Shown here: positions 6,538 through 55,583 of the stretch, piece by piece
Layout of the letters: every line of letters starts with the position of its first letter
How positions within the stretch are numbered: position 1 is the stretch's first letter
Source: an uncultured Acidobacteriota bacterium
GTDB taxonomy: Bacteria; Acidobacteriota; Polarisedimenticolia; J045
Assembly (NCBI GenBank): GCA_963702425.1
Contig: CAVPCQ010000032.1
Location: 1-64,000, forward strand
Direction: 5' to 3'
Length of the DNA: 64,000 bases
Made by a program: the position numbers and the translations under genes
Notes under the pieces: generated by a model
Told to the model about the DNA's origin: nothing
The model's database searches: none
What the model saw: the letters and a program-made list of their open reading frames with translations, nothing else

Positions 6538-6551
6538 CCACGGGGGTCCCC

Positions 6552-8110: not shown

Positions 8111-8142
8111 GGAAAGGACCCGGCCGTAGCCGGGTCCTTTCC
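8111..8142 (-). terminator. intrinsic terminator hairpin
   Basis: 14-bp stem GGAAAGGACCCGGC / GCCGGGTCCTTTCC, loop TACG on the minus strand, then TTTCC; lies between convergent genes. Confidence 0.75.
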
Positions 8143-8191
8143 CCATCTCGCGAGCTTGGCTTCAGCCGGGCCGGCCTGTTCCTCTCCCCGT

Positions 8192-8560: not shown

Positions 8561-9173
8561 GTATTCAACTCCTTTTCTCCAGGCGCAGAAGTGCTGGATT
8601 CGTTCGGGCTCCCGATCTTAGTCTGACTTTGATCCGTCCTTCGATCCTCTTGCGGATCGCTCAGCCGTTCGGGCAGCCGGCAGGCAGGAACAACGATGGG
8701 CTGCTCCTGCTCCACCGCGCCTGGCTCCAACGGCGATAAGAACCCCCCGCGCCTTTCCCCATGGGCGCGGCCTGGATGCCCCTGGAACCGCCCCTGGATG
8801 GCGGCCCGCAGGTTCGGGAAGGGCCGGGCAGCTCGGCCTCCCGGACGCGCGTGACCTCACATCCTGGCGGCGTGAATTGGACGCACATCCTCGCCTCCGC
8901 GCAAGCCAGAATGTGAGCCCCATTGGCCCTCCGGACTGCGACGTCCAACTAGTTGATTCTGATAGAGTTGCAGGTTTCTGCTGTGGGGAGCGCGGGTTAT
9001 CCTCCGCCACTTTCGCCCGGGCCGCCGCGCGCCGGCACCATGCACCCATCGGTCGACCGGCGCCGCGGTTCGTCGTATATGCACGGGCACGTCAGCGCCC
9101 GCGGGCTGGGCTCCCCCAGGGGCCGAGGTCCGCACCACCGTCACCGCGGGGGATACGGCCTCCGGGAGGGATC

Positions 9174-12100
9174 GTGCAACGGAGGTTCGGTCGTCGGTCC
9201 CTGGGCGTCATCGCAATCCGTTGGTCCGCAGCGTTGCTGTTGCTCGGCTCGACCGGCTCCGTGTTCGCGGGACCTCCCGCGCTCCGCAACCCCGACGTCC
9301 GCGTCGACACGGGTCGCGGCCTCTACGCGGCCTCCTCCGCCAGGAGGCCCCAGATTCTGCTCCAGGGCGACCGCGCCTACGCGGTCTACCTCGATCAGCG
9401 CTACTTCCTGGCGTTCGAGCCGTACATCAACGTGTCGGTCAATCAGGGCGGCACCTGGAACACGACTGACCGCCGGCTCAACAAGGACGGTGCCGGCGTG
9501 CCCGAGGGCGACACGGCCTACGTGTACCTCAGTAAGCCGGCCGACGCGTACGTCTTCGTTCTCTTCCTCAGCAACGACGGGCTGCAGTCGATCCCCTCGG
9601 TCGTCGCGTCGCCCGACGGTGGGGAGACCTGGAAGCCGCAGGTCGACCTTGCTTTCGCCGACTCCAACTCGCGTGAGGGTTTCTCCATCGCCTCGGCTGC
9701 CGGGGGCAAGGGTTATGTCCTGTGGAGCGACAACCGGCTCAACCTCAGCGGCGACAAGTCGGTCTGGCTCCGCCGGACCACCGACGGCGGTTCGACCTGG
9801 CTGACCGGACAGCAGGTCAACGTCAACGAAGCCAGCCCTCCGCCGTGCATCCTGGACAAGCACGAAGCGTCGACGCAGCCGGTCATGTGCACCGACGGGG
9901 GCAGCCGCCTTCTGGTCGCATGGCGCGACAAGCGAAGCGCAACCAATCCCTGCACCTACGTCACAGCACCGGGCCGGATCGTGCTGCGCTACTCGACCAA
10001 CGGCGGCACCACCTTCTTCCCTGCGTCCGAGACCCGGCTCGACCGCGCCGACGGGACTCCCGGCACCGAGTCCCAGCGTCCCGCGATCGCGTGTAACGCG
10101 AGCGAATTCGCCACGGTCGTCTGGGAGGATGCGCGGGCCGGCGCGACCAGCTGGAACATCTACGCCAACGTCTCGCAGGATGGGGGCGTGACGTGGCGCT
10201 CGGTCGACGTGCGCGTCAGCGGCGGCGGCCCCGCGGGCAAGCAGGCGCGGAATGCGAAGGTCGCCGTCGGCGCCGGCAACCCCGCGCCGATCTACGTCGC
10301 GTGGGAAGACAACCGCGATGGAGGAAAGGACCTCTACTTCTCGCACAGCGACGACGCAGGGCAGACCTGGGCGACGCCGCAGAGGCTGACCACCATCGCC
10401 AGCCCGACCGCGACGCCCCTCGAGAATTGGGACCTCTCCGCGGACGGAACGGCGGTCACCGTGGCCTGGAGCGCGGACAATCGCCCCGGACCACCGACGA
10501 CTCGGCGTTCGGACGTCTTCGAGGTTCACTCTACGGACGGCGGCGTGACCTTCCTGCCCGCCCAACGACTCGATCTCGGGACCGGGCCGAACGTCTTCGA
10601 CTCCGCAGAGCCGGACGGCGGCGCCGCGGGCACGGGGCACATCGCCATCTACGCCGACCTGCGCAACGACGTCGCCGCCGACCCGGACAGGCCGCGCCAC
10701 GACCTCTACAGCGGCGGCAGCGGGACGAGCGTCGACCCGAACGACGCCGATGCCGACGGACTTGCCCGGGCGAACGACAACTGCCCCGATTACCCGAACT
10801 TGGACCAGCGGGACCGTGATTCCGACGGGCGAGGGAACCTCTGCGATCCGCACCCGGACGATCCCGACAACGACCGCGACCTGGACGGGATCGCCTCCAA
10901 CCTGGACAACTGTCCGCTGAGGCACAATTCGAATCAGGACGACACCGACGCCGACGGGTGGGGCGACGCTTGCGACCTCTGCGCCGGGACGGCCGACCAG
11001 CTCCAGCGTGACCTCGACCGTGACGGGACGGGAGATGGCTGCGACGGCGACATCGACGGCGACGGCGTCGCCAACACAAGCGACGGCGACGACGACAGCG
11101 ACGGCTGGACCGACGCGTCCGAGAACTGCCCAACGGTCCCCAACCAGCGGCAGCAGGACGAGGATCACGACGGTCGGGGAGACGACTGTGATACCGACGA
11201 CCTGATCGTCTCGAACGTGAATATCCGGCCCGATGCGCTGCAGCCGCCGCGTATGGACTGGGACAAAGAGCCGGGCGCGTCGAGCTACAACGTGTACGTC
11301 GGCGTAGCCGATCGCCTCGCGACGGGCCACCCCGGGTTCTGCTACGCACCGTCCCTGAGTTTCTATGTCGCGCACCTGGCGGCGCAGCCCGACCCGGGTC
11401 AGATCCTCTGGTTCCTCGTCACGGCGAAGAACGGCAGCGGGACCGAGGGGAGCGCGGGAGCGCGCTCCGACGGCACGAAGCGGCCGAAACCGTCCCCCTG
11501 CGACGAGACGGCCGCTAGAGACTGGGATCTCGACGGCTTCATCAACGCGCGCGACAACTGCCGCTTCGATGCCAACGCCGACCAGACGGACCGGGACAAG
11601 GACGGCCCGGGGGACGTGTGCGACCGGTTCCCGGGCGATCCGCTCGACGACGAACCCGACCGGGACGGTGTCGGCTCCGACGTCGACAATTGTCCGTTCA
11701 TCGCCAATCGCGATCAGGCCGATGCCGATCTCGACAGGATCGGCGATTCCTGTGACGACTGCCCGACGGAATACGACCCGCTGCAGCGGGACTCCAGCGG
11801 CGACGGGATCGGCGATGCGTGTGATCCGGACAGCGACGGCGACGGCGTCCCGAACGCGATCGACGCGGACGACGACAACGACGGCGTCTCCGATGCGACC
11901 GACGACTGCGCGTTCACGGCCGACTCGTCGCAGTCCGACCAGGACCACGACGGGACCGGCGACGCCTGCGACGTCGACGACCGCGAGATCAACGACGTGG
12001 ACTTCTCACGCGGCAGCCGTGAGCGGATCGAGTGGACGCTGGAGCAGGGCGCAGCGTCGTACTCGGTCTACACGGACCTCGTTTCGAACATCAGGCCGGG

Positions 12101-32019: not shown

Positions 32020-32187
32020 CGGGCACGGGCGGGAGGCATGCAGGACTCGAGCTCGCGTCCCCGGGGGCGGTGCGGCCGACATGGAGTCGCGAGATTTCCT
32101 TTGACTCGGAAAGTCGTCAGGGGATAGCCTGCACGGCGCAGGTTCCTCGTTCTCCGGAACAGGGACCTGACCGCGCAGGAGGTCCGC

Positions 32188-33102
32188 ATGATCGAGCTGA
32201 AGTCGGTTTCGAATCCCCAGCCGAAGGCCGCGCTCGAGGGCGCTTTCACCGAGGCGGTCCCGACTCGAGCGGTGACCGAAGGGCGGGCCGGCTCGGCCAG
32301 TGCCGACACCTCGCGCTCCTTGAAGCACCTGGCCGCCAAGGGCCGCGGCGAGCCGCTGCGGAAGCGCTCCGCGCCGTCTGCTCTCGAGAGCATCATCGGC
32401 CCGACGGACGACCGCGTCCGCATCCTCGACACCGATCTCACACCGTGGCGCATGGTCTGCGCGCTCCGAATGCGCGGTCCTTCGGGATCCGCGATCGGCA
32501 CCGGGTGGTTCGTGGGACCGAAGACGCTGCTCACCGCGGGCCACTGCGTCTACTCCACGAGCTTCTTCGGCGGCTGGGCTTCGGAGATCGAGGTCAGCCC
32601 GGGGCGCAACGGAAACGAGTTCCCGTTCAGGACGGTGAAGAGCCGCCGCTTCAGCTCGATCGATCGCTGGATCAACTCGGAGGACCCGGACTTCGACATG
32701 GGGTGCATCCACCTGGACGAGCCGCTCGGCAGCGAGGTCGGCTGGTTCGCGGTGGGAGCGCTTCCCCCGGGTGACCTCGAGGGCTACCTGGTCAACGTGT
32801 CGGGATACCCGGGAGACCGGGGAATGGGTACCGAGCAGTATCATCACAAGAACCGGGTGCTGCAGGTCACGGACCGGCGCCTCTTCTACGACGTCGACAC
32901 GTTCGGCGGGCAGAGCGGGGCTCCCGTCTGGATCCACGAGACCGAGACCGCGCCACCGCTCGCGGTCGGCATTCACGCCTACGGCACCGGCGGCTCGCCC
33001 ACGGGGCTCGAAGCGAACTCGGCGCCGCGGATCATCCCGGAAGTGCTGGACCAGATCCGAGGCTGGGTGGAGGCAGACGGAGGGTGGCCCAAGAAGGCGT
33101 AG
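32188..33102 (+). CDS. V8/glutamyl-endopeptidase-like serine protease
   Basis: AGGAGG RBS; ALE|SIIG activation-like site; TAGHC, DFD, DTFGGQSG, GIH (Thr190/His213 S1 pattern). Confidence 0.9.
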   Translation: MIELKSVSNPQPKAALEGAFTEAVPTRAVTEGRAGSASADTSRSLKHLAAKGRGEPLRKRSAPSALESIIGPTDDRVRILDTDLTPWRMVCALRMRGPSGSAIGTGWFVGPKTLLTAGHCVYSTSFFGGWASEIEVSPGRNGNEFPFRTVKSRRFSSIDRWINSEDPDFDMGCIHLDEPLGSEVGWFAVGALPPGDLEGYLVNVSGYPGDRGMGTEQYHHKNRVLQVTDRRLFYDVDTFGGQSGAPVWIHETETAPPLAVGIHAYGTGGSPTGLEANSAPRIIPEVLDQIRGWVEADGGWPKKA

Positions 33103-41471: not shown

Positions 41472-43148
41472 ATGAAGGCACAGGCCGACGCTCTGCTGAA
41501 AGCCCTGGCCGAGTCGGGATGCCAGGGGGCGCGAGACCGGATGTCGGACCTCGTCGACGCGATTCGGGCCCCGATCGACGGCGATGTGACGCGCGCCGTG
41601 CTCGACACGCTTCGGAGCTACCGATGCTTCGCGCTCATGCAGACCTTCGCCACCGAAGCGGCGAAAGTCGCGCAAGGCAATCTCCTGATCTACGTGAAGC
41701 GGCAGCTGGCCCAGGCCAAGATCGAGCTCGGCCATCTCGACGAGGCCGTCACCCTCCTCGAAGCTCTCGCGCAGGACGTCGAGCATGGTGGCTCTGCCAA
41801 GGAGCGGAGCGAGGTCACCGGCCTGTTGGGCCGGACGCACAAGCAGCGCTTCGTCGAGGCGGTTGCCGGGGGAGCGAAGGGAGAGGACGAGCTACGGGCC
41901 GCCGTGCGGGCCTACGGCCAGGTCTTCGACCTGGACCGGGCGTGGCACGGCGCCAACATCGTGGCTCTGGTGGCGAGGGCGGAGAGGGAGGGTCTCTCGG
42001 CGGGCACCGACAACGCGGAGACTTGGGCGCGACGCCTTCTCGATGCGCTCCAGGAGAAGGCCCGTCCCGAGTGGAGTCCCTGGGACTATGCCTCGGCGGG
42101 GGAAGCGTATCTCGCTCTCGGCGACAAAGAGAACGTCGCCGGCTGCTTTGCCCACTACTGGAACATGGCGAACGCGGACGCGTTCGCTCTCGCGGGCACT
42201 GAACGGCAGCTGAGGGAGATCTGGCAGATCACGAGCGAGTCCGCTGACAAGCTGCTGGCCTCTCTCCTCGTGCACCTCGAAGCCAGGAAGTTGGCCGCTC
42301 CAGGGGGCGGCGCACGTTACACCGCGGCCGATCTCCAGACGCTGGCGACGCAGCTCCAAGCGGCAACGGGAAAGGCCGAGGCTACCTTCGGAGCCGGGAG
42401 CGGCATCCCCCTCGGCAGAGTGCTCCGTATTCTCGACAGGGCGAAGTCCATCTGCCGGATCGCAGACATCCACGATCCAAAGAGAGCTGGTACCGGGTTC
42501 CTCGTGAACGGGCCGGACCTGAGTCCTCCCGTCGATGGGGTGTTCGTTCTCACAAACCACCATGTGCTCCACGGAGACGAAGCGGGCGATGCGCTCCTGG
42601 CGAGCGAGGACTACCGGGCTTCGATCGACGTCCAGCGGGCGCAGGCGGAGTTCCACTACTGGGAAGGACTCCCCAAGTCCCGGACGATCAAGCTCGGGAA
42701 GGTGATTCGCTCGTCACCGAGGTGTGAGGCGGATTTCGCCTTGGCTTCCCTCTCGGAAGCGGTCCCCGCGAACCTCGCGCTCCCCTTGTCGCGAACGCTG
42801 AAGCCCCTCGGGTCCCGCAACTTCACGGATCCGAAACGGCGGGCCAAGGTCTTCGTCGTCGGCCATCCGCAGGGGGGCGATCTCAGCTTCAGCCTCAGCG
42901 ACAACGAGGTCGTCGACCACGAGCTGGACGACAATCCCTGCGGTCATCCCCGGCGCATCCACTACCGCACCCCCACCGAGCCTGGAAGCTCGGGGAGCCC
43001 CGTGTTCGAAAGCGAGACGCTCGAGGTGGTCGGCCTGCATCGATCGGGGCGAGCGGATCCGCTGCGCCCCGATTGGCCGCGCACCAAGAGCGACGAGGTC
43101 TACGAGGCCAACGAGGCCGTCTCCATGCGGTCGCTGCTGGGCCTCTGA
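41472..43148 (+). CDS. TPR-S-like helical domain plus trypsin-like protease
   Basis: GLLGRTHKQ..AY..W.YASAGEA helical sensor-like region; GTGF, TNHHV, ADFA, TEPGSSGSP, GLH. Confidence 0.85.
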   Translation: MKAQADALLKALAESGCQGARDRMSDLVDAIRAPIDGDVTRAVLDTLRSYRCFALMQTFATEAAKVAQGNLLIYVKRQLAQAKIELGHLDEAVTLLEALAQDVEHGGSAKERSEVTGLLGRTHKQRFVEAVAGGAKGEDELRAAVRAYGQVFDLDRAWHGANIVALVARAEREGLSAGTDNAETWARRLLDALQEKARPEWSPWDYASAGEAYLALGDKENVAGCFAHYWNMANADAFALAGTERQLREIWQITSESADKLLASLLVHLEARKLAAPGGGARYTAADLQTLATQLQAATGKAEATFGAGSGIPLGRVLRILDRAKSICRIADIHDPKRAGTGFLVNGPDLSPPVDGVFVLTNHHVLHGDEAGDALLASEDYRASIDVQRAQAEFHYWEGLPKSRTIKLGKVIRSSPRCEADFALASLSEAVPANLALPLSRTLKPLGSRNFTDPKRRAKVFVVGHPQGGDLSFSLSDNEVVDHELDDNPCGHPRRIHYRTPTEPGSSGSPVFESETLEVVGLHRSGRADPLRPDWPRTKSDEVYEANEAVSMRSLLGL

Positions 43149-43168
43149 GGCCCTCCGGGGAGGACGAC

Positions 43169-46100
43169 CTGCCGCAGCCGGCGACATTCCGCGTGTTCAT
43201 TTCGGCCGTCAGCGGCGAGTTGGGGAGTTGGCGTCGCGAGGTCGCTCGCGCCCTTCGCCGGAAGGGGCTGGAGGTCCGGGACCAGGAGCACTTCCGCCAG
43301 GGAGGGGGGACGCTTCTCGAGAGTCTGAGGGACTACATCCAGAAGTGCGATGCCGTGATCCTGCTCGTCGGCGAGCGCTGCGGGGCCTTCCCGACCGAGG
43401 AGCACGCTCGCGCGCTCGGGGTGGTTCCGGCCTTCGAGGACTATCGGAGTGCCAAGGGGCAGTCGGATGCGTCCTACACCCAGTGGGAACTCCTCCTCGC
43501 GCGGCACTACGGCAGGAAGACCTACGCCTTCGTGACCGAGGCCGGTTTCACGCCCGACAAGCCGAACGACGAGCCCGCTGAGCTTCGAGCGCGCCAGCAG
43601 ACCTACCGGGAGTGGATCGATCAGACGGGCCTGCATCGCGGACCCCTCACCACGGTCGAGAAGCTGATCGAGGACGTGCTCGTCCTGGACTTTCCCGACC
43701 TGGGTCGGCCAGCGCCCGTCTCCCTCCCCTACCCGAGCCTGGGCACCCTCTTCAAGGGGCGGAGGGGCTTTCTCGAGCAGCTACGGACGAGCCTGGAACG
43801 GCTGGGCGAGGGCCAGGCGACGGCGATCGTGGGCCGGGCGCTCCACGGGCTGGGCGGGGTCGGCAAGACCCGTCTGGCCGTCGAGTACGCCTGGCAGCAC
43901 CGGGAGGACTACACCGCCCTTCTCTTCGTTGCGGCCCAGACGCCCGAGGACCTTCGGCGCAACGTGGCAGCGCTGTGCGGCCCGCTGATCCTGGACCTGC
44001 CGGAGAAGGACGCCGCAGAGGAGGAGACGCGCGTGGCCGCGGCGTTGCGGTGGCTCGCCGAGCATCCGCGCTGGTTCCTCATCCTGGACAACCTCGACAC
44101 GAAGGCGGCGGCGGAGGGTGCCGAGGAGCTCATGGCGCAGCTCCAGGGCGGGCACGTCGTCCTGACGAGCCGGCTGAGCGAGTGGAGCGGAAGCGTCGAA
44201 CCCCTGGAGCTGGACGTGCTGGCGAAGGAGGATGCGGCGGCCTTCCTGCTGGAGCGGACGGAGCGTGCCCGGCGGCGGCGACGCACGGACGCGGCCGACG
44301 CCAGAGAGCTCGCCGCGGAACTCGACGGCCTCGCCCTGGCCTTGGAGCAGGCAGGGGCCTACATCGTCCAGCGCAAGCTCAGCCTGGCGGACTACCGGTC
44401 GAAGTGGCACGACCAGGAGTCCGGGGTGAAGGAGTGGCACGACGATCGGGTGATGAAGTACCCGCGCAGCGTGGCGGTGACGTGGCAGACGACGATCGAG
44501 CAACTGGGCCCTGGAGAAGTGGCGCTCCTCGGGCTGCTCGCGTGGATGGCGCCGGAGCCGCTGCCTCTCTTCGTCCTGGAGGCAGCGGGAGCGGAGACGC
44601 TGTGGCAGGAAGCCGTGGGGCTCCTGGGTGCCGGGAATCTGCCGTCCGGTCCGCTCCTCGACGAGCTGGCGACGCTCTCGAACTACTCCATGGTCCGCTG
44701 GGACGCCGAAGGCGAGAGCGTGTCCGTGCACCGGGTCGTCCAGGAGATCCTGCGCACGCGGGTCCCGGAGGCCCAGCGGAGGGCCTGGTTGACCCTCAGC
44801 TTGCGCTTGCTAGCCGGCGCGCGTCCAGGCGACCCGACGGATGTGCGGACCTGGCCACGCTGGGACCTGCTGCGGTCGCACGTGGCTCTGACCGTTGCGC
44901 GGGCCGAGGAGGCGGGCAATCCCGATCCGACGGCGTTGCTGCTCGGCGAGCTCGGGCTGCTCCTGTCCGAGAAAGCTCTCCACGCGCAGGCGGAGCCGCT
45001 GCTGCGGCGGGCGCTGTCGATCGACGAGGCGAGCTACGGCCCCGAGCATCCCAACGTCGCGAGGCACCTCAACAACCTGGCCTGCTGCTTCAGGCGACGA
45101 ACCGTCTGGGGGAGGCAGAGCCGCTGATGCGGCGGGCACTGTCGATCGACGAGGCGAGCTACGGCCCCGAGCACCCCAACGTCGCGATCCGCCTCAACAA
45201 CCTGGCCTCGCTGCTTCAGGAGACGAATCGACCGGGGGAGGCGGAGCCGCTGATGCGGCGGGCGCTGTCGATCGACGAAGCGAGCTACGGCCCCGAGCAT
45301 CCCAATGTCGCGATCCGCCTCAACAACCTGGCCTCGCTGCTTCAGGCGACGAACCGTCTGGGGGAGGCGGAGCCGCTGATGCGGCGGGCGCTGTCGATCG
45401 ACGAGGCGAGCTACGGCCCCGAGCATCCCAACGTCGCGATCCGCCTCAACAACCTGGCCTCGCTGCTTCAGGCGACGAACCGTCTGGGGGAGGCGGAGCC
45501 GCTGATGCGGCGGGCGCTGTCGATCGACGAGGCGAGCTACGGTCCCGAGCATCCCAACGTCGCGATCCGCCTCAACAACCTGGCCTCGCTGCTTCAGGAG
45601 ACGAACCGCCTGGGGGAGGCGGAGCCGCTGATACGGCGGGCGCTGTCGATCGACGAGGCGAGCTACGGCCCCGAGCATCCCACCGTCGCGAGGGACCTCA
45701 ACAACCTGGCCTCGCTGCTTCAGGATACGAACCGTCTGGGGGAGGCGGAGCCGCTGCTGCGGCGGGCGCTGTCGATCAACGAGGCGAGCTACGGCCCCGA
45801 GCATCCCAACGTCGCGATCTGCCTCAACAACCTGGCCTCGCTGCTTCAGGCGACGAACCGTCTGGGGGAGGCGGAGCCGCTGATGCGGCGGGCACTGTCG
45901 ATCGACGAGGCGAGCTACGGTCCCGAGCATCCCAACGTCGCGATCCACCTGAACAACCTTGGCTTCCTGCTTCTGGATTCGAACCGTCTGAGGGAAGCGG
46001 AGCCGCTGATGCGGCGGGGCATCGAGATCCTGGCGCATTTCACACGGCGGACGGGACACCCGCATCCTCATCTCGAGGCCGCGCTTTCGAACTACGTCGG

Positions 46101-46176
46101 TCTCCTCAAGGGGCTGGGCCACGGTGAGGCGGAAATCCAGAAGAAGCTGAACGCCGTCATGAGTTTCGGCGCGTGA
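43169..46176 (+). CDS. NLR-like protein: DUF4062/TIR-like, NB-ARC and TPR array; frameshift near 45083
   Basis: VFISAVSGEL N-domain; GLGGVGKT and LILDN; 42-aa TPRs; first repeat lacks one C relative to sister repeats; start codon (CTG) uncertain. Confidence 0.85.
44990..46015 (+). repeat. about 8 tandem 126-bp TPR-coding repeats
   Basis: GC(G/A)GAGCCGCTG recurs at about 44990, 45115, 45241, 45367, 45493, 45619, 45745, 45871, 45997. Confidence 0.92.
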
Positions 46177-46214
46177 CGCGCGGGCGACCGCCGGCCGGGC
46201 TTTCTTCCCCTCCG

Positions 46215-47711
46215 CTACTTGTACGTCACCCAGGAGATCCCGAGGTTGGTGCCGTAGGTGTTGACCTTCATCTTCGCGTAGCGGCCGGCGCTGGTCTTGA
46301 TCGCGATCACCGTGCCGGGCTTGAGCTTGTTGGCCGGCTTGTTGCTGCCATCGATCGGGTTCGCCGTGTAGGGCTGGGCCGCCAGGGTCTGGAGCGAGAT
46401 GGCCTCGAAGTCGGGCTTGCCCATATGGGCCAGCATGGCTCCGCTCTGGGGCATGAGGTACCGGGTCACGGAGTTGACCTGCTGCCACCAGATGTCCGCC
46501 CCGCCGTCAGGGCCCGCGACCCCGGCATCGAAGTCGAACGTCCAGGTCCCCTTCAGCGTGGTGGTTCCCCTCGACTGCACCGCGAGCTCGTTCCAGCCCA
46601 GGTGGCCTCGGGTGAAATCGCAGACCGCCGGCGTGTTCTGGCACATCAGGCACGGTACGAAGTGCTCGGCGCAGGACTCGCAGTTGCCGTTCGCGATCCG
46701 GTAGCGCCCGAAGCGCGACGTGCAGTCGCACTCGCTCGAGGCGTACTCGTCGGGGCAGCCGAAGACATGTCCGGTCTCGTGGGCGAGGACGAGATTGAAG
46801 TTGTCGATTCCCCAGCCGTCCACCTTGAAGTCCATCACCAGGTGGTTGCCCCACTCGTACCCGAACCACACGACGGGGTGTTTGGTGACGAAGATGGCGT
46901 ACGCGTGCTGAGCGTCGTACTTGGCCTTGATGTCCGCGATGAACTTCCTCATGCCGGTCATGCTTTGCGCATACCCCAGCGCGCCCATGGCCGCGTCGCG
47001 CCAGGTGTCCTCCCAGGCTTCCTTCTCGGCGGCCGGGAAGTCCGACTTCTTCAGCGAGATCTTGGGACACCGGACGTCGTAGAACCACTGGATCCCCGCG
47101 CGCGGCTCGAAGCCGCCCAGCATGTTCAGCCCCTCCGCGGTCTCCGAGATCACCTTGAGCTTCTCGGCGGCGGTGATCGCGTACGAGGAGACCGTGGAGT
47201 CCACGAAGACGAGGCCCACGCCGATCCGACCGACGAGCACCGGGATGCTCATGGCCGGAGCGCCTTCGAGCAGGGCTCCCGCTTCCGGAGCGTGCCGCGC
47301 CTCCCAGCCTCGAATGAGGCTCTGGATCTCAGCGGGCGGATGAGGGGGCTGCCGGCCCTCGGCGTCCCAGTTCACACCGGCGGCCTCGCGCGTCAGGAAG
47401 GACTCGAGCCTCGCGGCGCTCACATGGTCGTTCCACGCCCGGGCCGCGTACGCCACGAGAGGCGAGGCCCGCCTGAGCACCGACGCCTTCACCGCGCCGG
47501 TGCTTGCGGACGCAATCCCGGGGAGCTTCGCGATGCTCGCCACCCGCGCTGCCGGCAGCGAGACCACAATCACCTCGGGCGGACAGGCATGGAGAACCCG
47601 ACCGCCCGCCTTCTCGATCGCCCGGATCGTCCGCTCCGTCCCCTTCAGGTCCTTCGCCTCGAGCTGAAGGAAGACCTCTTGCATCCCACCGACCTGCTTT
47701 CTCTGCGGCAT
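46215..47711 (-). CDS. zinc metalloprotease with N-terminal prodomain
   Basis: AAGGAGG RBS; LAHETGHVFGCPDEY zinc motif; Cys cluster and CLM Met-turn-like; C-terminal beta domain. Confidence 0.85.
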   Translation of the reverse strand: MPQRKQVGGMQEVFLQLEAKDLKGTERTIRAIEKAGGRVLHACPPEVIVVSLPAARVASIAKLPGIASASTGAVKASVLRRASPLVAYAARAWNDHVSAARLESFLTREAAGVNWDAEGRQPPHPPAEIQSLIRGWEARHAPEAGALLEGAPAMSIPVLVGRIGVGLVFVDSTVSSYAITAAEKLKVISETAEGLNMLGGFEPRAGIQWFYDVRCPKISLKKSDFPAAEKEAWEDTWRDAAMGALGYAQSMTGMRKFIADIKAKYDAQHAYAIFVTKHPVVWFGYEWGNHLVMDFKVDGWGIDNFNLVLAHETGHVFGCPDEYASSECDCTSRFGRYRIANGNCESCAEHFVPCLMCQNTPAVCDFTRGHLGWNELAVQSRGTTTLKGTWTFDFDAGVAGPDGGADIWWQQVNSVTRYLMPQSGAMLAHMGKPDFEAISLQTLAAQPYTANPIDGSNKPANKLKPGTVIAIKTSAGRYAKMKVNTYGTNLGISWVTYK

Positions 47712-47761
47712 GTCCGGCCTCCTTCTGCGCACGCTGACTCGCGCGTCCGCCACTCCCCTCT

Positions 47762-48220
47762 CTATGCCCCGTCCAGTTTGTCGCTCTTGCCCGATCTGGG
47801 CTTGCGGGACGGGTCACTTGCAGCCTCGGCCTCCCGCCGGCGCAGATACTCGCGAACGGATGCCGGCGGGTCGGGCGGGAGAAACCCGGGCGCATCCCAG
47901 CTCTCACCGCGTCCCTTCACGCGCCCTCCCTCGGCCTTCGATCGGAGGCGCTCGTTCCACGCTGCGGCGGCGAGGCGGAGTGGCTCGGGCAGAGCGGCGA
48001 GTTCGGAATCGGGAAGCTGGTCCGCAATCACCCGCACTCCAGGGAGACAGCGGATGGAGTCGAAGTCGGCACGGCGAAGCGCGGCGATGACGCACCAGGG
48101 AGGAAACGAGTGGGCTGGCGCGATGCCATGCTCCTTCAGGGACCGCGCGAGCGCGGCCCAGCCCGCATCGCTTGCCGCCACGATCAGGGCATCGAGGCGA
48201 TCCCCTTCTCCCTCCGGCAA
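47762..48220 (-). CDS. stand-alone paralogue of the metalloprotease prodomain
   Basis: HSFPP..LPGV..AAAAWN..WDAPGFLPPDPPA matches HACPP..LPGI..AARAWN..WDAEGRQPPHPPA of the next gene; TTG start. Confidence 0.75.
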   Translation of the reverse strand: MPEGEGDRLDALIVAASDAGWAALARSLKEHGIAPAHSFPPWCVIAALRRADFDSIRCLPGVRVIADQLPDSELAALPEPLRLAAAAWNERLRSKAEGGRVKGRGESWDAPGFLPPDPPASVREYLRRREAEAASDPSRKPRSGKSDKLDGA

Positions 48221-48535
48221 TTCCGATTCTCCAAGGCCAAAGCGGTGGCCGCGCGGTGGGCGCCCGCCGACAGCTCAGCGCGCGAAGAGCGCGAACAGCG
48301 CGAAGTGCCCACGTCGACAGGCGCCAACGTCCAGCTCCGCCTCCGGCGCGGCTTCGATCGAGCGAATCGTAGCTCCCGGGCGGAGAGGCGGTCAATGACT
48401 TTCGCTGAGTCCAGTCGCAGACGCTGAGCGAGCGACTTCCGATCAGCGGATTACTTACGAGTTGCTCCGCGAAGCCCGTCTCGTCTCGGGGGCAAGTCCC
48501 TCGCCTTCACGCCCCGGTGCTTGTAGGATACGCGG

Positions 48536-49159
48536 ATGCCATCCCCTGCCTTTCTGGCCTCGCTCCCCTTCATCCTCCGCTGGGAGGGCGGCTACGTGGA
48601 CCACCCCGCCGACCCCGGCGGACGCACGAACAAGGGGGTCACGCAGGGCGTGTACGACCGCTGGCGTGTGGCGCAGGGCCTGTCCGCGCGTCACGTCAGG
48701 TTGATCGACGACGCCGAGGTCGCGGCGATCTACGAGAGCGGGTATTGGATCCCGCCGCGGTGCGACCGCCTGCGCCGCCGGCTCGACCTCCTGCACTTCG
48801 ACACCGCGGTGAACATGGGGCCCGGCCGCGCCGTCCGCTTCCTACAGGGGGCGCTCAACTGCTCCGTCGACGGCGCGTTCGGCTCCGGTACGGAACGAGC
48901 GGCCGCCGAATGCGAGCTCCTGCCGACCATCGAGGCGTATTGCGAGGCGCGGCTGAACTACTATCGCCGCCTGACCGACCAGCGGCCCGAGCTTCGCGTC
49001 TTCCTGAAAGGCTGGACCAACCGGGTCAATGCGCTCAAGTCCGAGATCGGCCTCGGGGGGCCCGAGGCGACGCTCGAGGTCAACTTCGGCGAATCCGGTT
49101 ACATCGCCCGGATCCCCGACCTGGGGATCGATCCGGCCTACGACCTCGACGAGCCCTGA
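48536..49159 (+). CDS. GH108 lysozyme with peptidoglycan-binding region and acidic tail
   Basis: WEGGYVDHPADPGGRTNKGVT, FDTAVNMG, FLKGWTNR; TAGGAT -10 ends 7 nt before the ATG. Confidence 0.9.
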   Translation: MPSPAFLASLPFILRWEGGYVDHPADPGGRTNKGVTQGVYDRWRVAQGLSARHVRLIDDAEVAAIYESGYWIPPRCDRLRRRLDLLHFDTAVNMGPGRAVRFLQGALNCSVDGAFGSGTERAAAECELLPTIEAYCEARLNYYRRLTDQRPELRVFLKGWTNRVNALKSEIGLGGPEATLEVNFGESGYIARIPDLGIDPAYDLDEP

Positions 49160-49195
49160 CCAGGGCTCCTCGGCTCCCGGCTGATGCGCCTCGCG

Positions 49196-49765
49196 TCAGT
49201 CGAGAATCTCGTACGTGCAGGCGAAGGCCGCGGCGGCAACGCGGTAGGTGTCCGCCGGATCCTTCGGGTCCTGGACGATCGCATCGCCCGGCTTCGCGAT
49301 CATGCGCTCGCCCCACGGGGCGGTGAACGCAAACTCGCCTTGCTCCGGCTTCAGGACGAAGAACCGCATGATCTTGCCGAGCGGCTTGTACTCCTGCCAT
49401 CCGGCCGCTTGCCCGGGCTTGCCGGTGCTCTCGTAGCGCTCCTTGAACTTGTCCGCGGCGACGAGGTACTCCTCGTTCCCCGTGGCCTCGCACCGGTTTC
49501 GGACGACCCAGTCGCCACTCGCTGCGGGGCGACTCGTGGTCTCCTTGCCCTCCCCGGCAAGCACCGTCACGATCACCTCGCCGGGCTTCGCCGGCCGCAC
49601 ATCGACGGGCTTCGTCTTCCGGGCCTCGTGCACGAGGCCGCGCGCTTCGGCTTCCTTCATCAGGCCGCGCACCTGGTCGAGGGTCCAATCTCCGCCAAAG
49701 GATGGGGTCGGTTGGCTCATCAGGAGGACTCCTAGTCCGAGGAGCAGCACTGCAGTCTTCAGCAT
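49196..49765 (-). CDS. secreted PGDYG-like protein
   Basis: signal peptide; ARKT..ET..GDWVV..EEY..KF..Y and APWGE..KPGDAIV..Y..AF..TY duplicated motif. Confidence 0.7.
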   Translation of the reverse strand: MLKTAVLLLGLGVLLMSQPTPSFGGDWTLDQVRGLMKEAEARGLVHEARKTKPVDVRPAKPGEVIVTVLAGEGKETTSRPAASGDWVVRNRCEATGNEEYLVAADKFKERYESTGKPGQAAGWQEYKPLGKIMRFFVLKPEQGEFAFTAPWGERMIAKPGDAIVQDPKDPADTYRVAAAAFACTYEILD

Positions 49766-49823
49766 GGATCCCTCAACTCAATTCGAACCCGCCGTGGACG
49801 CTCCACGAATGCTCGCACGAGCG

Positions 49824-50549
49824 CTAGGGCAACCGGTTCCCCGCGTCGGCCAGGATTGCGGCGATCAAGAAACCCTGGTTACGGTAGTACCGCTCAGGGT
49901 GCTTCGGGTCGGGGACCCGCTGGTTGTGCAGGGCCACCACGTTGAACCGATCGTCGAGGACCGGCGAGCCCGAGGTCCCGTAGTCGGTGTCCGTCTGGTA
50001 CTGGACGAAGTTGTCCTTGACCGCGCGCACCTTGTTGTCGCGGAACGCGATCTCCTGGTGGCGCCCCTGCGGGTACTGGATGATGTTCACCCGTTCGTTG
50101 AAGCGGATCCTCTCGCCGTGGCGCGGGTTGAAGAAGCCCCACACCTCAGCCGCCTTCTTCCCGCCCTTGGGTTTGACCTTCACGATCGAATAGTCGAGGG
50201 CGGGGTTCGTGTAGAAAAGCGCGTCCGGATCGCAGGTCCATTCGTCGACCGGGGCGTCCGTGCCGTCGGCGAGCTTGCGGTAGTTGAACTGGAGCTTCGC
50301 GGTCCGAGCGTCGGCGGCGTTCTCGAATACATGATTGTTAGTCATGAAGGTGTCGGGGCCGACGAGAAAGCCGGTCGCGGAACCGCCTTGCAGGACCACT
50401 CGGGCGACCGAGCGTGCCGCCCGGACGGCGCCCTCGAGCCACCACACGGCCGTGAAGTTGGGCTCTCCGATGACTGCTTCGAGGCCTCCGGGCTCTTCCT
50501 TCCATTCGAATCCCGGCCCCAGGCCCGTCGTCAACCAGTTAGACTTCAT
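49824..50549 (-). CDS. trypsin-like (V8-type) serine protease
   Basis: short N-terminal segment ending GGLE|AVIG; ATGF, TNNHV, LDYS, TDYGTSGSP, ALH. Confidence 0.9.
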   Translation of the reverse strand: MKSNWLTTGLGPGFEWKEEPGGLEAVIGEPNFTAVWWLEGAVRAARSVARVVLQGGSATGFLVGPDTFMTNNHVFENAADARTAKLQFNYRKLADGTDAPVDEWTCDPDALFYTNPALDYSIVKVKPKGGKKAAEVWGFFNPRHGERIRFNERVNIIQYPQGRHQEIAFRDNKVRAVKDNFVQYQTDTDYGTSGSPVLDDRFNVVALHNQRVPDPKHPERYYRNQGFLIAAILADAGNRLP

Positions 50550-50764
50550 GTCGCACCCCCTTTCGGTCGCGGCAACGCACAACGCGATTGCGGTGCCGGA
50601 CCGACGGTACATGCTCGCGATGGCGATCCGGCGGACCGCGGCGAGACCACTTTTGAGGCGGCGTGGCGGTGGTCAGTATATGCTGATGGCGCGCGCCGCG
50701 AGTGGCTCCTTGATCGATCCAAGCGGTGACGGGGGATTCCAGACGTAACAGGGGAGGACAAGAC

Positions 50765-51541
50765 ATGAGCTGCAATGATCCGTACCTCAAGGAACTTCGT
50801 AGCAAGGGCTACAACGTCGTTCGTTTGCCGAAGGCCGACATCCGGCCCCTGCAACTGCTCACCAAACGAGGCGATACGCTCGATCGAATCGGAGAGTTGG
50901 CGACGGTCCTTCCGGCCAGCAACGTGCCGATGCCTCCCGTCACGGCGGACACGCGCGTCGCGAGCCTCTCCGGTGTGCGCTCGGGCGAACTCAGCCTCGG
51001 ATTCGGGCTTTCGATTCTGGGGAGCATCATCGGGGCGATGGGCGGCTCCAAGCTGGGCCTCGATCTCACCTACAAGAGCGCCAAGAGCGTCACCTTCGAG
51101 TTCGTCGACGTTCTCGAGGATCGGATCGAGATCGCGAAGCTCGACCAGTATCTGACGAGCGCCGACGTCAGCCCCTTCTCTTCCTTCGTCGCGAAGCTGC
51201 TCGAAGCCGACCAGCTCTTCGTCACCACCGCCACCGTGAAGAGCAACAAGATCTCGGTGGAGTCCAACGGCGCGGGCAACGCCGGAGTGGACGTGAGCAT
51301 CCCCGAGATCAAGCAGGTCGTGGGGGCGAACGTCAAGGTCGGCGGCGGCTCCGACAGGTCGTCCAAGGTCACGTTCGAGGGCCCGATGCCCCTGGTCTTC
51401 GGCTTCCAGGCGGTGCGTCTCTTCTACGAGGGGGGGCGGTACCAGCGCTTCAAGGTCCTGAGCGGCGGCGCCGCGCTCGAGGCGGTCGCGGCGCCCGAAC
51501 TCCTGAGCGAGGGCGCCTTCGTGAGAATGCTCGACGTGTGA
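50765..51541 (+). CDS. bacterial gasdermin
   Basis: GGAGGA RBS; 258 aa; MSCNDP with N-terminal Cys, GYNVVRLP..IRPLQL, VTFEF, PLVFGFQ; closely follows the known bGSDM pattern. Confidence 0.93.
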   Translation: MSCNDPYLKELRSKGYNVVRLPKADIRPLQLLTKRGDTLDRIGELATVLPASNVPMPPVTADTRVASLSGVRSGELSLGFGLSILGSIIGAMGGSKLGLDLTYKSAKSVTFEFVDVLEDRIEIAKLDQYLTSADVSPFSSFVAKLLEADQLFVTTATVKSNKISVESNGAGNAGVDVSIPEIKQVVGANVKVGGGSDRSSKVTFEGPMPLVFGFQAVRLFYEGGRYQRFKVLSGGAALEAVAAPELLSEGAFVRMLDV

Positions 51542-51580
51542 CGCGTCGGCGGCCAGGCGAAGCCGGCCGCTGGCTCGGCT

Positions 51581-52780
51581 TTATTCCGCCATCTCCAGGA
51601 ACCGCGTCGCGACCCGCGTCGCCTGATCCTGCACCATCGCGGCCTCCTCCGGGGAACGAACCGCCTCGAGGCCGCCACCCCGGCGCAGATGCGTGATCAT
51701 CGCCTGCCGGCCCGCCGCGACCAGTGCGGCGCGGCGCTCGTCGGTCATGGCGAACTCGGTCGTTCCGTAGCCGTGCGCCGGCATCCGAACGACGAGGTTA
51801 CGCAGCGACTCGATGATCTCCTTGTCGTGCGCGGCGGTGATCGTGTCGACCAACCGCTTGACGCGCGCGATCGTCTTCAGGCGGCCGAGTGCGGAGGGGG
51901 ACCCCTCCTCCGGATTCGGGGGCGCGTTCGGGACCTCGAGGGTCTCGTCGATCAGCAGCCCCATCACGTTCTGGCTCCGCTTCGTGCCCATGATGTCCGT
52001 CACGTACTGCTCGCTCGAGACGAAGAGCTCGAGCGGGAAGTTCGACAGCACACCCCCGTCGACGACCATGTGCCCCGCGATGTCGCGCCCGCGGTAGGCG
52101 CCCCAGTCGGGCGACCACTCGACTTCCTGCCAGACGAACGGGATGCTCATCGACATCCGGGCCGCCCAGACGACCGGGCAACCGGGCGCGGTCCGGTGGT
52201 TGAGGACGAGGATCCTCTGGGCCGAGGTGTCGGCGGCGACGAGCGACAGCTCGCGACCCGTGGCCGCGTGGAACTCCCCCAGGGTCATGCTCCCGAAGCG
52301 CCGGGGATTCCCCGCGACCGTCCCGCTGTCGAGCTTCTGGGAGAGCCACGACCGGAAGCGCTCGGCCGCGTACCAGCCCCCGCGTTCGACGAAGGAGAAG
52401 AGGTGCCGGTACTTCTCGCTCCGGGCCAGGAGCTGGACGAGCGCCCCGTCGAACCTGCGCTCGAGGAACTCGGGAACGAGCGGAAGGTCGATGGCGCGCA
52501 GGAAGTCCATGATGGCGCTGTCGGAGACTTCCTTCTCGGTGAAGGGCCCGGGCACCCCCATGAAGCCCACGAAGACGGGCTTGCCGTGCTCCGTTTCGTT
52601 CAGCGCGGCCATCATCTCGTCGGACGTGTATCCGGCCGCCAGCAGGGTCGCGGTGATCGCCCCGGCGGAGGTTCCGAGCAGGCGGTCGGCCCGGTGGCCC
52701 TTCGCCTCGAACTCCTGCATTGCGCCGACGAAGACGATGCCCTTGGCACCGCCGCCTTCGAAGACCAGATCGAACTCCAT
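51581..52780 (-). CDS. patatin-like phospholipase
   Basis: FEGGGAKG, GTSAG, SMSIP, VDGG motifs. Confidence 0.93.
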   Translation of the reverse strand: MEFDLVFEGGGAKGIVFVGAMQEFEAKGHRADRLLGTSAGAITATLLAAGYTSDEMMAALNETEHGKPVFVGFMGVPGPFTEKEVSDSAIMDFLRAIDLPLVPEFLERRFDGALVQLLARSEKYRHLFSFVERGGWYAAERFRSWLSQKLDSGTVAGNPRRFGSMTLGEFHAATGRELSLVAADTSAQRILVLNHRTAPGCPVVWAARMSMSIPFVWQEVEWSPDWGAYRGRDIAGHMVVDGGVLSNFPLELFVSSEQYVTDIMGTKRSQNVMGLLIDETLEVPNAPPNPEEGSPSALGRLKTIARVKRLVDTITAAHDKEIIESLRNLVVRMPAHGYGTTEFAMTDERRAALVAAGRQAMITHLRRGGGLEAVRSPEEAAMVQDQATRVATRFLEMAE

Positions 52781-52871
52781 GGGTCACCTCCGGAATGAGC
52801 GGTCGAGATGCGGGATCACTGGCAGTTCAGGCACTCGCGTCGAAGCGCGGGATGGGCTCCCGAGTCCGGTC

Positions 52872-53603
52872 TCACTTCTCGTCGGGGAAGAAGGCGTCGT
52901 TCACTCGGCCGAGCGACGGCATCGTGACGGCGTCGAGGTCCTCCTCGGACCCCAGCGCCACGGCCGCGAAGTCGGCGAGGGCGCGGGGCGCTGTACCGCC
53001 TCCCACGACGATCGGGATGATCGGCTTGCCGCGCTCGGCGGCAAAGCTGATTTCCTCTTCGGCCCAGCCCCGAAGCTCGCCGTGAGTGACCACGGCGACG
53101 ACGTCGGCCTTCTGGACGGCCTCTCCGACGGAGCGCGCGACCGACTCGAGGGGCGGAATCGTGTCCGAGGAGGTCACCTCGATGCCGTGGCTCTTCAGGC
53201 GTTCCATGAGCGGCGCGATCAGGGGCCGGTCGAGACCGGAATAGGAGATGAAGAGACGTGGACGGGCCTGCGCACCGGCTTCGGGGCTATCGCCTCCGGG
53301 CGCTCCGAGAGTCAGCCACCGCTCGAGCGGAATGTCGGCGCCGTCACTCATCGTGACGGTGGCGCCGATCGCGAATTCGCCCCAACCCTGCGCCTCGAGC
53401 CTGAAGTTCGAGGACCTCTCGGTCACCGTTTGCACCGGGTTCGGGAAGCTGGGGTGCAACGCATACCGCACCGAGCGAACCTGGTCCAGAACCTCCGGGC
53501 TGCCTTCGAGCCAGACCGCCCAGTTCCACCACTGAGCACCCTGAGGCTTGGCGCGGCACTGGAGGCGCAGCCCCCGTCGGTCGATCTTCTGCAGCTCTTC
53601 CAT
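52872..53603 (-). CDS. pYEATS-TIR fusion protein
   Basis: VRYALHPSFPNP..NFRLEAQGWGEF (prokaryotic YEATS); LFISYS..WAEEEI (TIR). Confidence 0.85.
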   Translation of the reverse strand: MEELQKIDRRGLRLQCRAKPQGAQWWNWAVWLEGSPEVLDQVRSVRYALHPSFPNPVQTVTERSSNFRLEAQGWGEFAIGATVTMSDGADIPLERWLTLGAPGGDSPEAGAQARPRLFISYSGLDRPLIAPLMERLKSHGIEVTSSDTIPPLESVARSVGEAVQKADVVAVVTHGELRGWAEEEISFAAERGKPIIPIVVGGGTAPRALADFAAVALGSEEDLDAVTMPSLGRVNDAFFPDEK

Positions 53604-53613
53604 GCTTCACCCC

Positions 53614-54297
53614 TCAGTCTGTCAGGCTCACTGGAACCTGGAGCGGCACGAACCCGGACGCTCGCCGCTGGCCAGGCTCTTCCACGCGCACGTCGATCAG
53701 TGTCGTGTCCTCCTGGATCCGGACGAGGAGGAACACGCCCTGCCCCTCTCGTCTCGGCTCTACCTCCGTCCAATCCGAGTCACGAAAGCCGTTCGAGATG
53801 CGATACTCCCACTTGCATCCCTTGCCCTTGCCGTAGAGCTCCTGGGTCAGCGGAACGGGCAGCACCTGAACCCGCTGGATGCGCCCACCGCGCCGCTTCC
53901 AGTGCCAGAGGGTCCGGGAGAGCTGGAGGAACGCGGGCAGGGGATCGGCGTGCGAAAAGCCGATGTACTCGTGCTCCTGGAACATGCCGCCGTTCTTGAC
54001 GCCATCCTCCAGGAGCGCGATCGCCGGTTTGTCCTTGCTCCGCGCGTGCTTCAGCTCGTCGAGACAGAACGGGTGCGTGGTCCAGCCCCCGCCCGCCAGC
54101 TCGTCCCGGCGCGTCAGGAGGGCCACGAGGCCGTCGGCCTCCTCGATCTGGCGCAGCAGCTCGGGAGTGACGGCCTCGCCCCCGAGCACGTCGCCGGTGA
54201 CCGCCCTCAGGCTGTGGCTCTCGAGCAGCGCCTCTGCCTTACGAGCCAGTTCTTTGTTGGCGTCGTCGTAGCGATACGACAGGAAGACGTCACGCAC
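53614..54297 (-). CDS. TIR-like domain protein
   Basis: VFLSYR..IEEADGLVALLT..CLDEL..KPAIAL; beta-rich C-terminal domain. Confidence 0.75.
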   Translation of the reverse strand: MRDVFLSYRYDDANKELARKAEALLESHSLRAVTGDVLGGEAVTPELLRQIEEADGLVALLTRRDELAGGGWTTHPFCLDELKHARSKDKPAIALLEDGVKNGGMFQEHEYIGFSHADPLPAFLQLSRTLWHWKRRGGRIQRVQVLPVPLTQELYGKGKGCKWEYRISNGFRDSDWTEVEPRREGQGVFLLVRIQEDTTLIDVRVEEPGQRRASGFVPLQVPVSLTD

Positions 54298-54593
54298 GAG
54301 CCGACCCTCCTCTGTTGATCCTGACCGGGGACCGATTCATGCCGAAAAGCCCTCTCGATGACCGCGCGGGAGCAAGACGCGTCGGCGACACGGAGGACGA
54401 GCCGCCACGCGTCGACGCGGATGACGCAGCCAACTCTCGACGCGGCTTCTTGCGGTGGAGTATACCCCCGCGGACGGGCGCGGGCGCCGGCGGGGTCGCA
54501 GCGACCCTCCGGGGCCGCTGCACCTCGTGCCACCGTGCTACCCTCGCCGTGCCGAGGCGGGATTCAACTTCCTGTCGGCGGAGTCAATTCCCG

Positions 54594-55583
54594 ATGACCG
54601 AGAAGCTGAGGGTCTTCGTCGCGTCTTCGTCCGAGCAGCTCGGGGTCGCCGCCGAGATCGCGCAGTCGATCAACCGGTCGAAGGCGTTCCACGCCCAGCC
54701 CTGGGACAAGGAGGTCTTCGAGTTCAGCAAGGCCTACATCGAATCGCTCGAGCAGGAGCTCGATCGCGCGGACTTCGCCATCGTCGTACTGACCGCCGAC
54801 GACGCGGGCAACGTCCGGGGGCGCAAGGTGAGCCTGCCGCGCGACAACGTGATCTTCGAGCTGGGGTTGTTCGCCGGCTGCCTCGGCCGGAGCCGTTGCT
54901 TTTTCTTCGTCGATGCGGACTCAGCCACGAAGATCGCATCCGATCTGTCCGGCGTGGAGCCGGTCACGTTCCGGCGCGGCAGGCCATCGGGAGGGGTGGA
55001 CCTGAAGACCCGGATTGGCCAGGTCGCCGAGCAGATGAAGAAGGCCGGGCCGCGGTCGAAGCCCTCGCGGGCGGCACGCGAGGCGCGGGAGTCGCTGTGG
55101 CGGTTCTCGACCCGGTTCTCGGGCCATTGGTGGGAGCGGATCCGCAGCGGCGAGGACGACAGGTCCGCCCTGAGCTATCTCACCGTCACCGTCGACGAGC
55201 TGACGAACACGCCGAAGATCAGCGGCAAGGTCTTCGGCCTCGTCGGCGAACGGCTGGCGGACTGGTCGACGGTGACTTCGGGCGTGTTGCTGTCGGAACA
55301 GCCAGCACAGGTGCATTACCGATGGGAGGGCGAGCACCAGGATGCCCACGGGCAGACCTACGGCGGCCACGGCATCATCATCCTCGAGGATGACGAGCTG
55401 ACACGGGGCGAAGGGTGGTTCTTCGACACGAACTTCGCACGGGTCTCGCAGAACGCCGTCACGCGCGTCAAGCACTTTCGCGTGTATCGCTGCTCGCCCG
55501 GCGAGGTAGAAACCATGATGGATACCACGTCGGACGCCGCCCGTTCGCTGATCGCGGACCGGCTGCAGAAGCTGCGGGGCTAG
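54594..55583 (+). CDS. Cap12/Pycsar-type TIR domain plus beta-rich C-terminal domain
   Basis: VFVASSSE, DFAIVVLTADD, PRDNVIFELGLF, SDLSGV. Confidence 0.85.
   Translation: MTEKLRVFVASSSEQLGVAAEIAQSINRSKAFHAQPWDKEVFEFSKAYIESLEQELDRADFAIVVLTADDAGNVRGRKVSLPRDNVIFELGLFAGCLGRSRCFFFVDADSATKIASDLSGVEPVTFRRGRPSGGVDLKTRIGQVAEQMKKAGPRSKPSRAAREARESLWRFSTRFSGHWWERIRSGEDDRSALSYLTVTVDELTNTPKISGKVFGLVGERLADWSTVTSGVLLSEQPAQVHYRWEGEHQDAHGQTYGGHGIIILEDDELTRGEGWFFDTNFARVSQNAVTRVKHFRVYRCSPGEVETMMDTTSDAARSLIADRLQKLRG

Follow-up and report, generated by a model that had tools for sequence, protein, structure and literature searches.

The 64,000-nucleotide (nt) stretch analysed here (the window) has a G+C content of 62-74% and belongs to the assembly, of 5.1 Mb in 42 contigs, of an uncultured Acidobacteriota bacterium. 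Between positions 49824 and 52780 it carries three adjacent genes, for a small serine protease, a bacterial gasdermin and a patatin-like phospholipase, and the tetrapeptide LEAV is present in all three products. An initial annotation had read this motif as a common cleavage site through which the protease would activate itself, the gasdermin and the phospholipase. The identities that it gave to the three proteins were borne out by profile matches, and a motif search located LEAV where it had been placed, with tails of 19 and 27 amino acids (aa) past the Glu in gasdermin and patatin, respectively. The features of the locus are the following (a slash marks a proposed cut):

49824..50612, minus strand: gene of a small cytoplasmic chymotrypsin-fold (S1B, V8-like) serine protease (Trypsin_2, 5.9e-22), with a likely start at M22, nt 50549, giving 241 aa
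50472..50483, minus strand: LEAV of the protease at the junction of prosegment and protease domain, proposed maturation site E/A (motif search, family alignment, AF2 model, V8 alignment)
50550..50764, no strand: divergent intergenic region of the protease and gasdermin genes (from the coordinates of the open reading frames, ORFs)
50765..51541, plus strand: gene of a bacterial gasdermin of 258 aa that starts MSC, with Cys3 (PADLOC bGSDM, 3.8e-79; PDB 7n51, 9.9e-39; GGAGG ribosome-binding site upstream)
51476..51487, plus strand: LEAV of the gasdermin in the loop preceding the 19-aa C-terminal peptide, proposed activating cut E/A (motif search, homologue classification)
51581..52780, minus strand: gene of a patatin-like phospholipase of 399 aa (PF01734, 7.1e-29)
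51659..51670, minus strand: LEAV of the patatin in the 10-residue loop 367-376, candidate cut E/A (motif search, AF2 model, clade alignment)

The protease and gasdermin genes are divergent, and the gasdermin and patatin genes converge with a 39-nt gap. In residue numbers, LEAV occupies positions 44-47 of the 262-aa protease ORF (23-26 in the 241-aa form), 251-254 of the 271-aa gasdermin ORF (238-241 in the 258-aa MSC form) and 371-374 of the patatin. The hexamer GGLEAV is common to protease and patatin, and a LEAVxxPE likeness spans the gasdermin and patatin sites. Gene conversion between these last two sites, whose 12 nt differ at a single position, was considered and rejected, as codon bias accounts for the likeness.

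A database entry (P0241) is identical to the 241-aa protease that begins at M22. A sequence search of the PDB gave 32 chains at E<=0.01, the nearest being those of SplB, V8, exfoliative toxins and other glutamyl endopeptidases. The AlphaFold2 (AF2) model of the protease, with a pLDDT of 87.9, was matched by Foldseek to FAM111A at the top, followed by Esp, pro-Esp, V8, the exfoliative toxins and the Bacillus intermedius enzyme, with TM values of 0.60-0.68 and a sequence identity of only about 20%. Conservation was read from a family alignment (A2) of 88 sequences, made of 87 of the 120 listed matches plus the window protein; in A2, as in the patatin alignment described below (A1), near-duplicates, truncated and over-long forms were dropped by eye. 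The catalytic triad H73/D119/S193 is invariant, T188 and H208 are invariant as well, and R211 is conserved in at least 90% of the sequences. The HMMER alignment to V8 places T188, H208 and R211 at chymotrypsin positions 190, 213 and 216. According to the available part of the glutamyl endopeptidase literature (PMC5508998), His213 with Ser/Thr190 is mandatory in all glutamyl endopeptidases, and in exfoliative toxins the role of charge partner falls to Lys216; the His213/Thr190 pair is also common to the Gln-specific 3C proteases, so that it does not strictly tell Glu from Gln. Judging from R211 (position 216) and the conserved Glu at the domain junction, the protease looks Glu-specific at P1, and its earlier description as a V8-type enzyme that cuts after Glu is thus supported both by its S1B relatives and by the predicted Thr190/His213/Arg216 set.

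At least 90% of the 88 sequences keep the junction Glu (E24 in the 241-aa protein), and conservation is seen in the adjoining AVIGEPNF too. In the AF2 model residues 1-30 are coil with a pLDDT of 55-66, and the offset of the V8 alignment brings residue 1 of mature V8 near the protease LE/AV. Since the junction Glu is conserved, the first 30 residues are flexible and V8 residue 1 falls nearby, self-maturation at LE/AV is a reasonable inference. A parallel is known from Glu-SGP, which matures by an autocatalytic cut of the Glu(-1)-Val1 bond (PMC5508998, in the part available). The view that this site stands at the activation position therefore holds, with a low-confidence N-terminal segment lying where V8-type enzymes have their mature N-terminus. 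Inspection by eye showed no hydrophobic signal at the protease N-terminus MKSNWLTTGLGPGFEW; no predictor was run.

The gasdermin is matched in the PDB by 7n51 (Vitiosangium bGSDM, 9.9e-39) and 8sl0 (7.6e-38). The alignment with 7n51 covers residues 3-244 and leaves LE in the stretch past the last strand. The protein starts with MSC and its homologues with MSC, MGC or MxC; in the Bradyrhizobium gasdermin the N-terminal Cys3 is the palmitoylation site. The Johnson preprint (10.1101/2021.06.07.447441, as far as its text was available) reports that the Runella gasdermin is cut after L247 in a loop of ~12 residues, with 21 residues left, and that ~20 residues are enough for inhibition. By its sequence the 19-aa tail would fit an inhibitory C-terminal peptide of this length, and its ending EGAFVRMLDV is conserved in homologues. 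The proposal that the gasdermin LE marks the position of tail release is in keeping with the 7n51 alignment and with the Runella precedent, which both point to the expected pre-tail loop.

LE recurs at this loop in close homologues. A column count of P1 in a MAFFT alignment was dropped, because the loop was misaligned between subgroups, and 119 of the 120 listed homologues were instead classed by motif (P0240, of 224 aa and with an unrelated C-terminus, was excluded). The loop carries x[LF]E in 43, [ML][KR] in another 43 and MVRG in 10; seven combine x[LF]E with a K/R motif, and 16 have neither. Such differences between subgroups are as expected if the loop tracks different proteases. In genome G343 a gasdermin of 54% identity has AGLEAA, and the gene after it encodes a TPR-S-trypsin protease that shows this Thr/His pattern too. 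Locus L007 (genome G015) has, at 5992-10396, a gasdermin whose tail looks unlike that of its relatives, followed by a protease-endonuclease gene broken by a transposase-like ORF (7730-8476).

The linkage of the three genes was followed in metagenome contigs, where a gasdermin query, with 215 pattern matches, yielded 5 loci. Locus L019 has the protease (86%), the gasdermin (85%) and the patatin (82%) in the same arrangement as the window. The nucleotide homology runs over window positions 49834-52791 (84.9% over 2976 nt), so that the trio forms one 2.96-kb block, and the remainder of L019 has no match to window 46001-54500. The homology stops 11 nt upstream of the patatin start; there a gene of 118 aa replaces the TIR genes of the window, and downstream of the protease a TPR-S gene replaces the PGDYG-like gene. 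That the trio is kept as a block in this second context is the best evidence of a three-gene unit. The TPR-S (sensor repeat) protein of L019, at 3-929 on the minus strand, is free-standing, and the pair that it forms with the small protease just upstream resembles a split TPR-S-trypsin fusion. Three loci have a member of this patatin clade: in the window and in L019 the protease stands beside the gasdermin, and L020 begins inside the gasdermin. In L022, of the same variant type as L020, no protease stands beside the gasdermin. Among contigs of set X1, one joins protease and gasdermin.

A second pairing of gasdermin and patatin was found in L021, where a gasdermin of the MVRG type (412-1200) and, 3 nt further on the same strand, an unrelated patatin of 368 aa (1203-2309) share a 2.9-kb contig with no protease; this hints that the pairing recurs. 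A similar small protein adjoins the patatin in both L019 (118 aa, 3964-4320, minus strand, with no Pfam match) and L021 (126 aa, 2386-2766, minus strand).

The patatin belongs to a family with 4943 matches among 8000 scored candidates, distributed patchily over several phyla. Alignment A1 holds 87 sequences (86 of the 120 listed matches plus the window protein), and in it the G9-G11 oxyanion motif (GGGxKG), S38 of GxSxG and D241-G243 (DGG) are invariant. The AF2 model (pLDDT 87.9, pTM 0.89) was matched by Foldseek to VipD, CapV, PlpD, CapE and ExoU, and the PADLOC phospholipase-effector matches span only residues 5-70. In the model LE falls in a loop of 10 residues (367-376) that connects helix 347-366 with helix 377-398. 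In the nearest clade (window, L019 and P0001-P0017; 19 unique sequences of 67-90% identity) the L and E of this linker are invariant in 19/19 sequences, and no other linker residue is invariant until the Gln that starts the terminal helix; invariant columns number 178 of 404 in the clade alignment. Three patatins of the clade have GLES or ELES twice, at a distance of 8 residues. Many of the listed patatins outside the clade (P0045-P0117) have a conserved h-S-F-G-h at the same linker position. A complex prediction of the mature protease (residues 25-241, alignment A2) with the full patatin (alignment A1) gave no answer, its scores being 0.00 and 0.01 where the mark is 0.32, and is no evidence either way.

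From these data we lean, by a small degree, towards a gasdermin-type cell-suicide (abortive-infection) module of three co-inherited genes. The protease would be made with an N-terminal prosegment of ~24 residues, and a cut after the Glu of GGLE/AVIG, by the protease itself or by another Glu-specific protease of the surrounding defence island, would create the new N-terminus needed for activity. The active protease would then cut the gasdermin after the Glu of AALE/AV and release the 19-residue inhibitory peptide, whereupon the freed pore domain with its Cys3 would assemble in the membrane and the pores would kill the cell. The patatin would be the second membrane effector, perhaps cut by the same protease at GGLE/AV in the loop ahead of its last helix. 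As the small protease has no sensor domain, a partner may act ahead of it, such as a TPR-S protein, as in L019, or another protease of the island. The identities of the genes, the places of the motif, its conservation and the co-inheritance are direct observations. Taken jointly, Glu specificity, self-maturation and gasdermin cleavage are likely, and the protease-gasdermin half of the model is well supported by inference. The patatin is probably the second effector of the same module; that the protease cleaves it is something we doubt more than we believe, and the patatin half of the two-effector model is suggestive only.

Several observations weigh against one switch for three co-inherited genes. 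An alternative is that only protease and gasdermin form a system and the patatin is independent, either standing alone or working with the upstream TIR genes, its LE being a structural linker feature that resembles the other sites by chance. This explanation is a serious one, which falls only somewhat short of an even chance. The patatin gene is co-oriented with two upstream TIR genes and lies 91 nt downstream of the same-strand pYEATS-TIR gene. In L018 and L020 a two-TIR gene is found between the gasdermin (LEAV) and the patatin (LEAV), next to the patatin in L020, and an X1 contig has a 1263-nt two-TIR insert between window positions 51553 and 51582. A conserved terminal helix (consensus ADRIAxRIL) follows the variable linker in all 120 listed patatins, from several phyla, and the patatin homologues in genome G016 (55%) and locus L002 (61%) are found among housekeeping genes with no adjoining protease or gasdermin. 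Being family-wide and present in housekeeping contexts, the helix did not arise as a gating device, but the linker could have been co-opted for that use; the suggestion that the patatin tail is a special inhibitory element was therefore not sustained. In addition, loop 367-376 is short and modelled fairly confidently (pLDDT about 75-90), unlike a floppy cleavage loop. The dipeptide LE is common, with 2, 3 and 5 copies in the three proteins, so that any meaning rests on position and context, and 239 of 20000 residue shuffles (~1.2%) produced some 4-mer shared by the three proteins, a rate that is not negligible over many windows. On the other side, in L019 the upstream TIR genes are replaced and yet protease and gasdermin stay with the patatin; LE is the sole invariant pair of an otherwise variable linker in the clade; and L021 has a second, unrelated patatin directly after a gasdermin. 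We still prefer the three-gene module, with the reserve on patatin cleavage given above.

Of the expectation that LEAV would be conserved in linked homologues only half was borne out: the L019 sites read LEAV, LEKA and LESA, so that LE is kept and AV is not. Furthermore, the protease motif marks the domain start across the family, and motifs of this kind (ALESIIG, AEATFG and TLEKVVS) stand directly ahead of the protease domain in three further ORFs of the window with a trypsin fold. It is then characteristic of the superfamily rather than specific to the trio, and its sharing need not mean a shared switch; the idea of one motif as common switch is weakened by this, even though the shared LEAV itself is real. 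The three further trypsin-fold proteases are encoded at 32128-33102, 41472-43148 and 58227-59351, one of them fused to TPR-S and one to EAD1.

Another explanation we judge unlikely: the small protease would not be the activator of the gasdermin, or not the sole one, and the LE sites would be cut by the TPR-S-trypsin (41472-43148) or the EAD1-trypsin (58227-59351), the small protease being a link in a cascade or a recent insertion. In L022 a 97%-identical gasdermin lies ~30 nt past the GH108 gene with no protease between them, which means that the 1584 nt carrying the protease are missing. The protease and the signal-peptide-bearing PGDYG-like gene (49196-49765) together make up this 1584-nt indel (window 49160-50743 against L022 1670-1678), and the same-variant gasdermins of L018 and L020 nevertheless keep LEAV. 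An x-E-x junction motif is present in four trypsin-fold ORFs of the window, the LE-tailed gasdermin of G343 is paired with a TPR-S-trypsin fusion, L019 has its separate TPR-S gene after the small protease, and the latter is without a sensor domain, all of which would suit another activator. Against it, the window, L019 and an X1 contig all have the protease gene next to the gasdermin gene in divergent orientation, and P0244 and P0152 are probably on one 19908-nt contig, a placement drawn solely from the equal lengths of their contigs.

A wider scheme, in which one Glu code of the form LE/small residue at the prosegment junctions of the island proteases also gates the gasdermin, the patatin and perhaps, through its TLE/ tail, the GH108 lysozyme, is improbable to us. 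A single proteolytic signal would in that scheme perforate the membrane, degrade lipids and let the lysozyme reach the wall. The GH108 + PG_binding_3 lysozyme gene is located at 48536-49159 of the window (plus strand), and its product has no signal peptide and an extra tail after EATLE/VN; the copy of 86% identity at 1046-1669 of L022 reads GGLEATLE/AD and lies ~30 nt upstream of the same-strand gasdermin. The enzyme may be a third LE-tailed lytic protein, which could leave the cell via the gasdermin pores. Pure coincidence in a proteome rich in Ala, Leu, Glu and Val, in which case none of the three proteins would be cut at the motif, is very improbable: the G+C content of the genome (66-73%) and shuffle rates that are not extreme given many windows (the 4-mer rate above, and 332 per 20000 for a 6-mer common to any pair of the three) speak for it, but all three sites stand at functionally meaningful places and are kept in homologues while their surroundings vary, and the S1 residues of the protease suit an acidic P1.

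With respect to the genomic surroundings, the trio is inside a defence island, and the neighbouring genes at 43073-46176 and 52872-55583 encode DUF4062/TIR-like-NB-ARC-TPR, pYEATS-TIR, TIR and CAP12-type TIR proteins. The two-TIR gene (389 aa) of closely related strains is at 888-2003 in L018 and at 752-1921 in L020. In 49000-54500 the search for sigma-70-like sites was negative, a result of little weight in this organism, and a promoter and terminator scan gave nothing exceeding shuffles.

The gasdermin was found in 4 of the 401 genomes of the phylum sample, G000 included, one of these matches being weak (E 9.7e-5) and having two TGA stops. The patatin is present in one of 119 genomes of the class (G000 only, at E<=1e-40) and in 2 of 401 of the phylum. 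A search of genome contigs with the patatin gave a single locus (L002, 61% identity) from 62 pattern matches, and the plasmid search with it gave no match. In 400 other genomes the protease has only domain matches of 33-41% inside larger ORFs, in 5 genomes, and in the phylum of G481 it was found in 0 of 401 at E<=1e-40, an uninformative result. Plasmid records matched by the protease numbered 24, all below 60% identity and many of them endonuclease fusions, with two Nostoc contexts that were uninformative. In the same-genus genome G313 there is no gasdermin or patatin-family homologue, and the protease has only a distant trypsin-domain match (E 2e-4), which speaks for the module.

To our knowledge, known bacterial gasdermin systems consist of one protease and one substrate, and the activating proteases studied so far that we know of either resemble caspases or are trypsin-like enzymes that carry sensor or CARD domains. 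The novelty here would lie in an activator of minimal V8 type that has a Glu site, and in the joint gating of a lipase and a gasdermin. Our literature searches found no work linking bacterial gasdermins to a glutamyl endopeptidase and nothing joining patatin, trypsin-like protease, defence system and cleavage; the titles and abstracts on gasdermin and patatin in anti-phage defence describe no such pair. A V8-type protease of minimal size whose Glu site can be read from sequence would offer an easily testable cleavage rule for a whole gasdermin clade. If the patatin is also a substrate, no earlier example turned up in our searches of a phospholipase that is gated by a protease and acts alongside a gasdermin; its gating would extend the recently described pro-nuclease principle to lipases, in parallel with the eukaryotic executioner proteases that have several death substrates.

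The comparison with known systems begins with the gasdermin-protease pairs of Runella, Bradyrhizobium, Vitiosangium and Lysobacter, in which the logic is established that a protease cuts the tail and death follows (10.1101/2021.06.07.447441, in its available portion). The window shares with them the N-terminal Cys, the short, putatively inhibitory C-terminal peptide past a loop and the adjoining protease gene. It differs from what is described there in that the protease is a minimal, V8-like enzyme of 241 aa without NACHT, repeat or CARD domain, in that it is divergently transcribed and not in one operon with the gasdermin, in that the predicted P1 is Glu, in contrast with the Leu of Runella, and in that a patatin is co-inherited.

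In the CARD-protease defence systems, phospholipase or endonuclease effectors replace the gasdermin (Wein et al. preprint, PMC10312443, as far as its text was available). They resemble the present locus in linking a trypsin-like protease to a gasdermin or to a death effector of the phospholipase type. However, effectors that replace one another there co-occur here, gasdermin with lipase and with a common motif, and beside the trio no CARD domain or ATPase was seen; in the available portion of that preprint, proteolytic cleavage of the phospholipase is not shown. A precedent for the proposed pro-patatin is given by the protease-gated pro-nucleases, HamM with protease-HamA, AVAST and canu (Tuck et al. 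2025, PMC12799240, in the part available), where the effector is inactive until a trypsin-like partner cuts at conserved residues. The effector in that case is a nuclease of the MBL fold, and the cut falls after Ile within insertions that obstruct its active site, whereas the candidate site here is in the C-terminal linker of the patatin.

Finally, the protease is like the glutamyl endopeptidases (Glu-SGP, V8, Esp, BIGEP and the exfoliative toxins) in its fold, in the Thr190/His213 pair and in the probable role of a new N-terminus, with a basic residue at position 216 as in the exfoliative toxins and, like Glu-SGP, with Glu where the propeptide ends (PMC5508998, in the part available). Those enzymes are secreted, as that source describes them, whereas the present one, with no signal peptide detected by eye, is encoded inside a defence island.

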